Source of the DNA: Escherichia coli
GTDB lineage: Bacteria > Pseudomonadota > Gammaproteobacteria > Enterobacterales > Enterobacteriaceae
NCBI RefSeq assembly: GCF_044324785.1
Contig: NZ_CP172127.1
Strand: one strand, 5' to 3'
DNA: 64,000 bases
A model generated the notes under the pieces. The model worked only from the letters and a program-made list of their open reading frames with translations, did no database searches and was not told where the DNA came from. Shown here piece after piece: positions 5,101 through 40,118 of the stretch (the stretch's first letter is position 1; every line of letters begins with the position of its first letter). Position numbers and translations under genes: made by a program.

Positions 5101-6161
5101 TCGAGCGTCATATTCAGACCATGCATAGCAAAGGCCGTCCGGTGTTCCAGGCGGTGCGGGAAAACAGCGAAGATGCCCGTGAATGGCAAAGCGGCACCTT
5201 TGTCGCCCCGACGCTGATCGAACTGGATGACTTTGCCGAATTGCAAAAAGAGGTCTTTGGTCCGGTGCTGCATGTGGTGCGTTACAACCGTAACCAGCTG
5301 CCGGAGCTGATCGAGCAGATTAACGCTTCCGGTTATGGCCTGACGCTTGGCGTTCATACGCGTATTGATGAAACCATCGCCCAGGTCACTGGCTCGGCGC
5401 ATGTCGGTAACCTGTACGTTAACCGTAATATGGTGGGCGCAGTGGTGGGTGTGCAGCCATTCGGCGGCGAAGGGTTGTCCGGCACCGGGCCGAAAGCAGG
5501 CGGTCCGCTCTATCTCTACCGTCTGCTGGCGAATCGCCCGGAAAGTGCACTGGCAGTGACGCTCGCGCGTCAGGATGCAGAGTATCCGGTCGATGCGCAG
5601 TTGAAAGCCGCATTGACTCAGCCGCTAAATGCACTGCGGGAATGGGCGGCAAACCGTCCAGAATTGCAGGCGTTATGTACGCAATATGGCGAGCTGGCGC
5701 AGGCAGGAACACAACGATTGTTGCCAGGGCCGACGGGTGAACGCAACACCTGGACGCTGCTGCCGCGTGAGCGCGTGTTGTGTATTGCGGATGATGAACA
5801 GGATGCGCTGACTCAGCTCGCCGCCGTGCTGGCGGTGGGTAGCCAGGTGCTGTGGCCGGATGATGCGCTGCATCGTCAGTTAGTGAAGGCATTGCCATCG
5901 GCAGTCAGCGAACGTATTCAACTGGCGAAAGTGGAAAATATAACCGCTCAACCCTTTGATGCGGTGATCTTCCACGGTGATTCGGATCAGCTTCGCGCAT
6001 TGTGTGAAGCCGTTGCCGCGCGGGATGGCGCAATTGTTTCGGTGCAGGGTTTTGCCCGAGGCGAAAGCAATATCCTTCTGGAACGGCTGTATATCGAACG
6101 CTCGCTGAGTGTGAATACCGCTGCCGCTGGCGGTAACGCCAGTTTAATGACGATCGGTTAA
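2199..6161 (+). CDS. putA: Bifunctional proline dehydrogenase / P5C dehydrogenase and transcriptional repressor PutA, 1320 aa
   Basis: ORF 2133..6161; start trimmed to the ATG at 2199 (MGTTTMGVKLDD...), which matches the PutA N-terminus I recall. Confidence 0.93.
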   Translation: MGTTTMGVKLDDATRERIKSAATRIDRTPHWLIKQAIFSYLEQLENSDTLPELPALLSGAANESDEAPTPAEEPHQPFLDFAEQILPQSVSRAAITAAYRRPETEAVSMLLEQARLPQPVAEQAHKLAYQLADKLRNQKNASGRAGMVQGLLQEFSLSSQEGVALMCLAEALLRIPDKATRDALIRDKISNGNWQSHIGRSPSLFVNAATWGLLFTGKLVSTHNEASLSRSLNRIIGKSGEPLIRKGVDMAMRLMGEQFVTGETIAEALANARKLEEKGFRYSYDMLGEAALTAADAQAYMVSYQQAIHAIGKASNGRGIYEGPGISIKLSALHPRYSRAQYDRVMEELYPRLKSLTLLARQYDIGINIDAEEADRLEISLDLLEKLCFEPELAGWNGIGFVIQAYQKRCPLVIDYLIDLATRSRRRLMIRLVKGAYWDSEIKRAQMDGLEGYPVYTRKVYTDVSYLACAKKLLAVPNLIYPQFATHNAHTLAAIYQLAGQNYYPGQYEFQCLHGMGEPLYEQVTGKVADGKLNRPCRIYAPVGTHETLLAYLVRRLLENGANTSFVNRIADTSLPLDELVADPVTAVEKLAQQEGQTGLPHPKIPLPRDLYGHGRDNSAGLDLANEHRLASLSSALLNSALQKWQALPMLEQPVTAGEMSPVINPAEPKDIVGYVREATPREVEQALESAVNNAPIWFATPPAERAAILHRAAVLMESQMQQLIGILVREAGKTFSNAIAEVREAVDFLHYYAGQVRDDFANETHRPLGPVVCISPWNFPLAIFTGQIAAALAAGNSVLAKPAEQTPLIAAQGIAILLEAGVPPGVVQLLPGQGETVGAQLTGDDRVRGVMFTGSTEVATLLQRNIASRLDAQGRPIPLIAETGGMNAMIVDSSALTEQVVIDVLASAFDSAGQRCSALRVLCLQDEIADHTLKMLRGAMAECRMGNPGRLTTDIGPVIDSEAKANIERHIQTMHSKGRPVFQAVRENSEDAREWQSGTFVAPTLIELDDFAELQKEVFGPVLHVVRYNRNQLPELIEQINASGYGLTLGVHTRIDETIAQVTGSAHVGNLYVNRNMVGAVVGVQPFGGEGLSGTGPKAGGPLYLYRLLANRPESALAVTLARQDAEYPVDAQLKAALTQPLNALREWAANRPELQALCTQYGELAQAGTQRLLPGPTGERNTWTLLPRERVLCIADDEQDALTQLAAVLAVGSQVLWPDDALHRQLVKALPSAVSERIQLAKVENITAQPFDAVIFHGDSDQLRALCEAVAARDGAIVSVQGFARGESNILLERLYIERSLSVNTAAAGGNASLMTIG

Positions 6162-28543: not shown

Positions 28544-28717
28544 TCACATTATTTTGATTTTGACATCATAACTTTCAAGCCCGGTCATTTTTTCTCGTGC
28601 GGTGAAGCGAATTTCAGAGACTTCTTTCCCTGTATTCTTGTTCAGCTCGGCGATTTTTTGCGCGATAAAGTCGGCGATTTCCGTTTCGGCTTGTTTTTTT
28701 AACTCTTCAATATTCAC
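28544..28717 (-). CDS. gnsA: GnsA (secG-null suppressor), 57 aa, GTG start
   Basis: Hand-translated from the minus strand: VNIEELKKQAETEIADFIAQKIAELNKNTGKEVSEIRFTAREKMTGLESYDVKIKIM; below the ORF-track length cut-off. Confidence 0.8.
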   Translation of the reverse strand: MNIEELKKQAETEIADFIAQKIAELNKNTGKEVSEIRFTAREKMTGLESYDVKIKIM

Positions 28718-28937
28718 TGTTAACCTCTTCTGGTCTTAAAAGACAGCAACACGCCAGTAAGGTGTTGGTTCCCGGTACCCTGGTCAGGTAAGAAATGTTA
28801 TAAGCCATCTCCCCGAAAGATTCAATAATCAACAGGTTATCGCTTACTATACATACAGCGTTGAAGAAAAATAAGGCAGATATAAAAAAGGCTCCACGAG
28901 GGAGCCTGATATTATTTTGTGAAATCCAGCGGCGCAT
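28707..28937 (-). CDS. ymcE: Small protein YmcE (Sfa), 76 aa
   Basis: ORF 28707..28970 trimmed to MRRWISQNNIRLPRGAFF...; 3' end overlaps the gnsA start by 11 bp. Confidence 0.65.
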   Translation of the reverse strand: MRRWISQNNIRLPRGAFFISALFFFNAVCIVSDNLLIIESFGEMAYNISYLTRVPGTNTLLACCCLLRPEEVNSEY

Positions 28938-29110
28938 GGTCAGTGCGTATTTGCAGCGCGACGTTATCAAAGGTGATCATCGTCGATTTACAAAAAATAC
29001 ACTTAGCGCCCAAAGGGTTTCGCTCCGTCACATCGAATGCCGATGTGCGGTACTGTGAACCATGACAACATGGACAGCGGAAATGGAGATGTTGAGTAAT
29101 AACGGCAACC

Positions 29111-29323
29111 TTAGAGCGTAACAACGTTCGCTGCCGCGGGACCACGTTGCCCCTGCTCAATAGAAAATTCAACTTTCTGATTTTCGTTCAGCGTGCGGAA
29201 TTCATTGCTCTGGATGGCGGTGAAATGGACGAAAACGTCTTTGCTGCCATCATCAGGAGTGATAAAGCCAAAACCTTTATCTGCGTTAAACCATTTTACT
29301 AAACCAGTCATTTTATTAGACAT
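29111..29323 (-). CDS. cspG: Cold-shock protein CspG, 70 aa
   Basis: Cold-shock domain with RNP motifs KGFGFI and VFVHF. Confidence 0.92.
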
Positions 29324-29608
29324 ATTTTACTTCCTTCATTTTGGGCCTTTCGGCAAACAGGGCTTTAATACAGAAACTACTTAGTGTTCAGGAGAGAGAC
29401 TCAAAAGAAGGGGATAATGCCTGATAATGAGAACTGCTTTAGTAAACTACTTTGTATGCTGTCTGTCTTTCAAACCGACGCAGCTATTAACGCATGATAA
29501 TTGAGATTAAGCAAATTTTATTTTAGCCGTCCGGCGGTCTTAAATATCGCTGGCTTTATTTTATTAACCCCGTATAGTGCAGCGCAGTATTTTCAGTAAG
29601 GAATTTGT

Positions 29609-29821
29609 TTGTCCCGTAAAATGACAGGAATTGTCAAAACCTTTGATCGCAAAAGCGGCAAAGGATTCATTATCCCCTCCGACGGTCGTAAAGAAGTCCA
29701 GGTCCATATTTCCGCATTCACTCCCCGCGACGCAGAAGTGCTTATACCAGGATTACGCGTGGAATTTTGCCGCGTAAATGGCCTGCGAGGACCAACAGCG
29801 GCAAATGTTTATTTGTCTTGA
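29609..29821 (+). CDS. cspH: Cold-shock-like protein CspH, 70 aa
   Basis: Csp-fold translation [37 protein letters not shown]...; divergent from cspG. Confidence 0.85.
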
Positions 29822-31119
29822 TGGAGAGCGCACGCCGGTATGCGTGCTTCATTCACGATTTGCGTAAAACCGGCCAACGAACACATGCCCTGCGCGTTTC
29901 GCTCTTCACATCCTGCCAGGGTCAGTTTCACCTCTCCGGGCGGCGTATTTAATGATAGCGGCGTTTTATCACGCATCTGCTGTAAAGTCTGGAAGACCAG
30001 CGAAACCTGAATCCAATGGCTGTTATCGCTTAGCCGACGCCAGCGTTCAAACACCAGTTCACCACCTGGCGGTGTGTTATCCGGCTGACCTGGAAGCGTC
30101 CAGTTGAGCTCCAGTGCGCCGCCGAGATTTGCCAGATTAGTATCGTGTCCGGCAATAAACAGCACTGAAGTGGGTAATGTCACACCATACGCCTGTTTTT
30201 GCGGTGGATGGGGCGTCAACGCTGCCATGATCAAATCCAACAACGGGGTGGCGCGGCTGCGGGCAACCTCTGGCGTGCGTTGTAGCAAATAAAACTGCGC
30301 GTTATGCAAACTTAGCAAGGTGTTCCACTGGTGTGAATCGGTAATCCTTCCCCACCCCGGCTCCGGCATTCCCTGTGCCTGTTGCAGGAGAAATATCTCC
30401 GTCAGCATTGACGCGAGGCTTACCGCACCGGTTAATGAGACATTGTCGGCGCTCACCTTGAGTTCCGATGGTAATGCCTGCGTTAATGAACAGCTTTCGT
30501 CCTGTTTCTCACGGTTAAGGCACAAGTTTGATTGCGGAAAATTAAGCACTCGTTCCAGTTCGCGAAACGCCGTTTGCCGATGCCCGGTAAAGTCAGCAAT
30601 TGACCCTCCTGCCCTGCTGAGGATCGCGTCAGTCACGTTCGCGTTATCCAGTTGGCAAACGCCAGTTTTTAGAGGATTAAATAACGGATCGGGACTGGAC
30701 GTATCTGCCTGGGCATGTACGGTTATTGCACAGTCAGGTGCCAGCCCGGCGGCGAAGGCTTCGCCTGTTTTACGGGTACGCTCGTCGACATCAGCAATAA
30801 TCGCGACCTGACCAGGCTGCGGGCAGCCCTTTTTCGCCAGCAATCCGTCAGCCACCAGACGCTGGCGTTGGTAATGTCCGAGATAGGCGATCAGCTCACC
30901 ACCGCGCGGTGTCAGCCAACCCAGTTTTACCGGCCAGGTTGGCCATGCGTCTGGGGTGACATCCTGCATCAGTTGCGTGGCCTTGGTTGGTGCACGCACA
31001 CCATGACGACTGACAATCACCACACTTTCCAGCTTCAGCTCCGGCTCACTCTGAGCGAATGCAGATTGCGGGGTGAACGGAATCAGAAGAGATAAGAATG
31101 GGATCAAGATCGCTTTCAT
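29809..31119 (-). CDS. appA: Periplasmic acid phosphatase / phytase AppA, with a variant C-terminus
   Basis: ORF 29809..31149 trimmed to [14 protein letters not shown]...; RHGVRAP motif; ends ...[10 protein letters not shown] where I recall ...IPACSL in K-12. Confidence 0.88.
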
Positions 31120-40022: not shown

Positions 40023-40110
40023 CGGAAGTGTGGCCGAGCGGTTGAAGGCACCGGTCTTGAAAACCGGCGACCCGAAAGGGTTCCAGAGTTCGAATCTCTG
40101 CGCTTCCGCC
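40023..40110 (+). tRNA. serT: tRNA-Ser (anticodon UGA)
   Basis: GGAAGTGTGGCCGAGCGG...TTCGAATCTCTGCGCTTCCGCCA with anticodon loop CTTGAAA, long variable arm and encoded CCA. Confidence 0.95.
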
Positions 40111-40118
40111 AAATAAGA

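Follow-up and report, generated by a model that had tools for sequence, protein, structure and literature searches.

The Escherichia coli cold-shock genes cspG and cspH are divergently transcribed and separated by a long AT-rich region. We asked how much of this region is transcribed as leader, on which strand, and whether it holds regulatory structure at the RNA level. The analysis was done on a window of 64,000 nucleotides (the whole stretch of DNA that was studied), and all positions below refer to this window unless stated otherwise. CspG is of physiological interest, as cspA, cspB, cspE and cspG are the four csp genes that have to be deleted together to obtain a cold-sensitive E. coli.

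Results and discussion

The intergenic region between cspG and cspH

According to the list of open reading frames, the intergenic region (29324..29608, 285 bp) lies between cspG on the minus strand and cspH on the plus strand, and its bounds are set by where these two reading frames end and begin (Table 1). RefSeq annotation of matching E. coli genomes gives the same gene names and the same geometry, with cspG, cspH, ymcF and appA as flanks. A 901-bp query around the region had matches in 5,422 of the 5,426 complete E. coli genomes, most records being at least 99% identical, and the identity to K-12 MG1655 was 100% (311 bases aligned). The GC content was 38.2%, where the window as a whole has 51.9%, and this puts the region among the most AT-rich 2.8% of 285-bp segments. 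The initial annotation, an AT-rich spacer of 285 bp between divergent cspG and cspH, was thereby borne out in every detail by the reading frames, RefSeq and the GC content. The lowest GC of the window was found at about 16000-16800 (285-bp minimum 29.5% GC).

The cspG leader of 156 nt takes up 55% of the region, the predicted cspH leader of about 24 nt 8%, and the two promoters (about 105 bp) 37%. The mapped start site of cspG and the predicted one of cspH are about 106 bp apart, and the 129 bp outside the cspG leader are mostly two back-to-back sigma-70 promoters. The expectation that most of the region is transcribed leader was therefore right numerically (about 63%), but nearly all of this leader comes from one strand and about 37% of the region is promoter DNA.

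Two short plus-strand reading frames inside the region (29384..29497 and 29501..29599) were rejected as coding because the indels of the region across taxa are not multiples of three. Between the promoters, and overlapping the predicted cspH -35, the plus strand has a terminator-like hairpin (29531..29553), which consists of the inverted repeat CCGGCG..CGCTGG with a T-rich run behind it. It was treated as a probable chance repeat; it is kept neither in the cspB-cspF paralogue nor in other taxa, and some other taxa have at the equivalent place a CCAG..CTGG repeat with other spacing.

At the far side of cspH, appA (minus strand) ends within the 3' end of cspH (29809-29830). In comparison to K-12 at this junction, the etk-etp-gfcE..A cluster, IS1D and the downstream flank of cspH are absent, and the last two codons of appA (..CSL in K-12) are replaced by ..CALHQDK. 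The appA-cspH junction was present in 8 of 25 rows of an evenly spaced sample of E. coli matches.

Table 1. Features of the cspG-cspH locus, with window coordinates. Leader nt are counted from the cspG start at 29479.
Feature	Position	Strand	Evidence or remark
cspG CDS, 70 aa, ATG start	29111..29323	-	Reading frame list; RefSeq annotation of identical loci
cspG 5'UTR, 156 nt, start G 29479 (GUCGGUUUGAAAG...)	29324..29479	-	RF01766 match start; Cappable-seq start; UTR primer
cspG SD core GAAGG, leader nt 143-147	29333..29337	-	Sequence; pair table
GCC-GAAA-GGC mini-hairpin, leader nt 126-135	29345..29354	-	Common to cspA and cspB; in fold A only
Anti-SD CCUUC, leader nt 69-73	29407..29411	-	Pair table
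CAU pairing with AUG in fold B, adjacent to anti-SD	29417..29419	-	Pair table
Cold-box-like element UGAAAGACAGA, leader nt 8-18	29462..29472	-	Aligns with cspA UGACGUACAGA and cspB UGAAGAACAGA
Fold A, hairpin wholly within the 5'UTR, leader nt 4-119	29361..29476	-	MFE of UTR alone; SD and AUG free
Fold B, long-range stem-loop, leader nt 34-185, mid-UTR to SD, AUG and codons 1-10	29295..29446	-	MFE with at least 30 nt of CDS
cspG extended -10 TGcGTTAAT	29486..29494	-	Read from sequence; ends 7 nt upstream of mapped start
cspG -35 TTGCTT, 17-bp spacer	29509..29514	-	Sequence and alignment with csp promoters; block identity 0.93
AT-rich UP-element-like block, minus strand GGACGGCTAAAATAAAAT / GGCTAAAATAAAAT	29515..29535		-39 to -59 from cspG start; block identity 0.78
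Predicted cspH -35 CTGGCT (TTGGCT or TTAGCT in other taxa)	29550..29555	+	Inferred; block identity 0.81
Predicted cspH -10 TATAGT, within near-invariant GTATAGT (29572..29578)	29573..29578	+	Identity 0.97, 16 taxa and cspB-cspF paralogue
Predicted cspH leader, about 24 nt, start about 29585 (+/- 2 nt)	29585..29608	+	Inferred from -10 position
cspH SD AAGGA	29598..29602	+	Unpaired in predicted fold; block identity 0.86
cspH CDS, TTG start	29609..29821	+	Reading frame list; RefSeq annotation

Transcription start and promoter of cspG

Three independent published lines agree on the cspG start site. The Cappable-seq start at U00096.2 1050528(+) converts to window position 29479 (window position p is 1080784 minus the NC_000913.3 coordinate, and at this locus.3 equals.2 plus 777), the '5'UTR + ORF' cloning primer of Adams 2021 for cspG starts at the same base with GTCGGTTTGAAAGACAGAC, and a review gives the length of the cspG 5'UTR as 155 nt. 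Start mapping, which had been suggested as the way to verify long leaders, thus puts the published cspG start 156 nt from the ATG. Cappable-seq also contains a minor second cspG start at U00096.2 1050548, corresponding to 29459 (-), 20 nt downstream of the main one and just past the cold box.

The regions on either side of the start were compared in a spacer alignment of 19 sequences, with block identities calculated over 16 non-redundant rows. The cspG -10 aligns with those of cspA, cspB and cspI and had a block identity of 0.92, as compared to 0.40 in the adjacent promoter spacer; on the cspH side the spacer between the hexamers reached 0.44. As judged from the alignment, the hexamers are kept and the promoter spacers are not, which is the pattern of a classical promoter footprint for both genes. 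Upstream of the cspG -35, the motif AAAATAA was invariant in the cspA, cspB, cspG and cspI promoters (four-way alignment), and by analogy to cspA the block at 29515..29535 would act as an UP element. A scan with consensus promoter models missed both real promoters and proposed a minus-strand TTAAGA...TAAAAT site at 29543..29515. It was rejected because transcription from it would begin some 30 nt further upstream than at the mapped site of cspG, and it had no support from conservation.

The cspG leader belongs to the cspA thermoregulator family

Scanning the window against all Rfam families gave a full-length match to RF01766, the cspA thermoregulator (model 1-428 of 428, 29479..29057 (-), 157.1 bits, E = 1.8e-42; gathering threshold 78 bits). 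Apart from tRNA, no other family passed its threshold anywhere in the window. A single tRNA gene, tRNA-Ser with anticodon TGA, is located at 40024-40111 (+). The RF01766 match spans the 156-nt UTR and cspG, and its 5' end coincides with the Cappable-seq start and the UTR primer. The block that contains the cold box (29461-29479) had a mean identity of 0.79 across taxa, and in the mini-hairpin near the SD (helix 5) pairing reached 87% and CG pairs had changed to UA. All defining features of the family that could be tested were present, and the cspG leader is one of the cspA-type cold-shock RNA thermometers.

Folding of the leader with ViennaRNA gave two structures, which have zero base pairs in common in the pair table. 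Fold A, obtained with the 156-nt UTR alone, also contains the GCC-GAAA-GGC mini-hairpin and leaves the SD accessible, with a probability of being unpaired of 0.82. When at least 30 nt of the coding sequence were added, fold B was obtained. In this structure the SD GAAGG (29337..29333) is base-paired to CCUUC (29411..29407) and the AUG to CAU, and the probability of being unpaired drops to 0.27 (SD) and 0.14 (AUG); fold B was more stable than shuffled controls (z = -2.67). Fold A is the translation-competent cold form and fold B the translation-incompetent form at 37 °C.

The same sequence was described in 2025 as an RNA thermometer on the basis of DMS probing, covariation and reporter assays (PMC13271884). 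In that study, a large stem-loop at 37 °C sequesters the RBS of cspG together with its start codon, a shorter and register-shifted stem-loop at 10 °C involves only the cspG UTR, and R-scape covariation backs both forms. The cspG 5'UTR conferred cold-dependent translation, and its deletion abolished the cold regulation of FLAG-CspG expressed from a tac promoter (sequence identical, K-12/DH5alpha). The cspG leader shows direct temperature sensing by an mRNA.

With equilibrium folding between 10 and 37 °C the preferred structure never flipped, and fold B was favoured at every temperature tested. A purely thermodynamic model thus falls short of reproducing the switch, as the MFE gives no temperature dependence. 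We infer a kinetic or co-transcriptional component, in which slow refolding would keep the open form in the cold.

Comparative support for the two folds

Relatives of CspH were searched for in one genome per species, giving 32 loci. A divergent cspG/cspB-like gene was located 270-303 bp upstream of cspH in 20 of them, including loci of Escherichia, Citrobacter, Raoultella, Kluyvera, Lelliottia, Enterobacter and Superficieibacter, and 19 of the 20 paired loci reached the RF01766 threshold. The leaders of 18 sequences were aligned with MAFFT, fitted to neither structure. RNAalifold gave a weak consensus on this alignment (19 pairs, -2.4 kcal/mol), and therefore folds A and B were tested as explicit structures, with controls in which the pairing partners were slid by 1-3 columns. 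The share of paired cells was 82.4% for fold A (slid controls 34-47%) and 77.5% for fold B (slid controls 40-50%), percentages that are inflated by the relatedness of the sequences and by the derivation of both structures from the window sequence. Changes to both partners were seen at 13 pairs of fold A, of which nine belong to the main hairpin, and at eight of the 16 pairs in the SD/anti-SD helix of fold B. Covariance analysis, proposed initially together with start mapping, accordingly favours structured RNA in the cspG leader, both by the RF01766 score and by the compensatory changes in the two folds.

When the orthologues were folded singly, the open-then-closed pattern was obtained in Escherichia, most Citrobacter, Raoultella and Superficieibacter. 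It was not as distinct in Kluyvera, Lelliottia and Enterobacter, the most remote of the taxa, where the SD was predicted to be paired even in the fold of the UTR alone.

A predicted short leader for cspH

The two hexamers of the predicted cspH promoter are exactly 17 bp apart. A cold-shock-type long leader was taken as a 5'UTR of roughly at least 100 nt, and the footprint of the cspH promoter predicts about 24 nt. The cspH promoter has been described as sigma-70 dependent in vitro. An experimental start site for cspH was not found in the literature searched, i.e. the plus-strand entries of Cappable-seq, SMRT-Cappable-seq, Romero 2014 and the sigma-54 paper; the Romero 2014 supplement covers only sRNA-like transcripts and the sigma-54 paper only read counts.

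The initial annotation had expected long structured leaders for both genes, in which case cspH would carry a cold-shock leader of its own and the leaders would overlap on both strands. The cspH RNA is indeed increased along with those of cspA, cspB and cspG in cells harvested in the cold, recent literature lists cspH as cold-inducible, and RF01766 has a weak plus-strand match upstream of and into cspH (29537..29640). However, this match scores 11.8 bits (E = 4), far under the threshold of 78, and folding of the predicted 5' region gave nothing unusual (z = -1.27). The part that such a leader would have to cover, 29536-29571, is the least conserved of the spacer and has a 10-bp indel relative to the cspB-cspF paralogue. 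A hexamer resembling a -35 is conserved 17 bp before the near-invariant GTATAGT, and this arrangement suits a promoter with transcription beginning about 24 nt ahead of the TTG. Also the Klebsiella loci with cspH but no cspG argue against a long leader: in them a terminator-like structure, a GC-rich hairpin with a T-run, comes to within about 45 nt of the cspH -10 on its upstream side. It presumably belongs to the upstream gene, and its position suggests that cspH needs only about 80 bp of upstream sequence. We therefore consider a second long leader improbable. The cspH leader appears, from its sequence features, to be short and plain, about 24 nt, and to carry no thermometer. Long structured 5'UTRs, and with them RNA-level regulation, were thus found for cspG (mapped start, RF01766, two folds, published thermometer), and the same expectation is most likely wrong for cspH.

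The TTG start of cspH (29609-29611) follows the AAGGA SD by 6 nt, and an in-frame ATG is present at codon 5. Each of the 20 paired loci has the TTG, as do cspF and almost every locus in which cspH lacks a cspG partner, and this conserved weak start may be a point of translational control. Such solo loci mostly keep the -10, SD and TTG; the -10 is divergent in Raoultella terrigena and Enterobacter sp. 10-1. In Salmonella enterica subsp. diarizonae (locus L016) and subsp. arizonae (locus L027), at positions 1265-2500 of the loci, cspH is present without cspG, and upstream of it the other strand carries an 807-nt match to STnc510. Of the cspG promoter the hexamers are gone there, but part of the UP-like block (TTTTAGCCGTCCAG) persists.

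Proposed regulation at the locus

Taken as a whole, a model with two back-to-back sigma-70 promoters, one long regulatory leader on the cspG side and a short leader on the cspH side is very likely in our judgement. The -35 TTGCTT, the 17-bp spacer, the extended -10 TGcGTTAAT and the UP-like block would direct synthesis of cspG mRNA from G 29479. As it emerges from the polymerase, the nascent leader would fold into the hairpin of the UTR alone (nt 4-119), in which SD and AUG remain accessible. With about the first 30 nt of coding sequence transcribed, the more stable long-range stem-loop (nt 34-185) would be able to form. At 37 °C the RNA would settle in this closed form and be poorly translated; in the cold the open form would persist and CspG would be made. 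The cspH gene would be transcribed from a separate weak promoter (CTGGCT, 17 bp, TATAGT), probably starting near 29585, and translated from the TTG behind the AAGGA SD.

Decay of the mRNA is a layer of control for cspA, and by analogy it is probably another one for cspG. Rho-dependent termination inside the cspG reading frame adds a further layer. Term-seq by Adams 2021 placed a 3' end at NC_000913.3 1051591(+), i.e. window position 29193 (-), 130 nt into the cspG reading frame, and attributed it to Rho-dependent premature termination; a cspG fusion was more than two-fold higher in the rho R66S mutant in the same study.

The region could alternatively serve mainly for protein-bound transcriptional control by H-NS, FIS or alternative sigma factors, with the RNA structure being incidental. 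Its low GC (38%) would suit this, FIS and H-NS regulate the paralogous cspA promoter (PMC4877382), genomic SELEX found binding of the sigma-32 and sigma-E holoenzymes in the cspH/cspG spacer, and ChIP-seq a sigma-54 site at cspH. Such control would nevertheless apply only to the promoter DNA of about 105 bp, whereas for the 156-nt leader a role as an RNA element is backed by the high covariance-model score, by the comparative evidence for its base pairs and by published functional data, and cold regulation of CspG has already been reported with the leader under a foreign tac promoter (PMC13271884). As an account of the whole region we regard it as highly improbable. Binding of proteins to the promoters and an RNA leader are compatible, not exclusive, and the reports of sigma-32, sigma-E and sigma-54 binding are left unexplained by the model of two sigma-70 promoters and one thermometer.

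A more speculative extension is that cspG/cspH, and likewise cspB/cspF, form a conserved bidirectional unit, in which the AT-rich block of about 20 bp (GGACGGCTAAAATAAA) couples transcription in both directions and the TTG start ties CspH synthesis to the status of initiation factors in stress. Counted from the cspG start the block covers -39 to -59, and counted from the predicted start of cspH about -47 to -67. We think this rather unlikely; if true, it could explain why cold, urea and AZT induce cspH along with cspG even though cspH lacks a thermometer.

The regulatory feature of the region is real and already known, and nothing in it is new in kind: the thermometer was established on the identical K-12 sequence, and therefore no new biology is claimed for it. 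What is added here is a map of the leader and promoters at base level, the comparative argument that cspH lacks a thermometer, and the conservation of the divergent pair, its spacing and the cspH TTG start across Enterobacteriaceae. Neither the conserved divergent pair with its spacing nor the conserved TTG was found discussed in the literature searched.

Relatives of the locus

The cspA gene, also a member of RF01766, shares with cspG a TTGC-type -35, a TGn-extended [C/G]TTAAT -10 and the AAAATAA UP block, and in the leader (about 156-160 nt) the cold box at the 5' end, the GCC-GAAA-GGC hairpin and the logic of being open in the cold and closed in the warm. The middle of the leader diverges between the two (mean column identity 70% in the four-way leader alignment), and unlike cspG the K-12 cspA locus has no divergent cspH partner.

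The closest relative is cspB-cspF on the Qin prophage of K-12, a paralogous copy of the whole divergent module. In a three-way alignment with the cspB-cspF spacer, 226 of 311 window positions were invariant. The copy has the cold box, both promoters, the GTATAGTGC -10 and TAAGGAATTTnTTTG with the TTG start, and the cspB leader was reported to behave as the same kind of thermometer (PMC13271884). It differs from cspG-cspH by its location on a prophage, a 10-bp insertion between the promoters and a leader of 161 nt. For cspB a short 82-nt leader transcript has been listed as an 'intergenic small transcript' (U00096.2 1639658-1639740, minus). By coordinate estimate it corresponds to the 5' half of the cspB leader (about 5635-5716 in the Qin locus, L005) and hints that truncated leader RNAs accumulate.

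The third relative, cspI, is likewise a cold-induced gene of the cspA family on the Qin prophage, and its 5'UTR was reported as a thermometer (PMC13271884). Its leader is strongly diverged from that of cspG and has no cspG-type cold box in the alignment, and it has no divergent cspH-like partner. Downstream of cspI, ynfQ and gnsB parallel ymcF and gnsA downstream of cspG. The chromosomal order cspH-cspG-ymcF-ymcE-gnsA (28544-29821) is mirrored on Qin (L005, 2456-6068) by cspF-cspB and cspI-ynfQ-ynfR-ynfN-gnsB, which suggests a common origin of the chromosomal locus and the prophage cargo.

Outside the csp family, ROSE and fourU zipper thermometers also make access to the SD and AUG temperature-dependent. 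These melt open with rising temperature, whereas the cspG leader is open in the cold and switches between two folds instead of melting.

Downstream of cspG the minus strand has a strong intrinsic-terminator-like hairpin at 28889-28907 (AGGCUCCCUCGUGGAGCCU) with a U-run behind it, right past the stop of ymcF and within the reading frame annotated as ymcE. The hairpin is overlapped by a match to the Salmonella sRNA STnc220 (28874-28954 (-)) that stays below threshold (34 bits as compared to 60). The hairpin may end the cspG-ymcF transcript, which would question the expression of ymcE.
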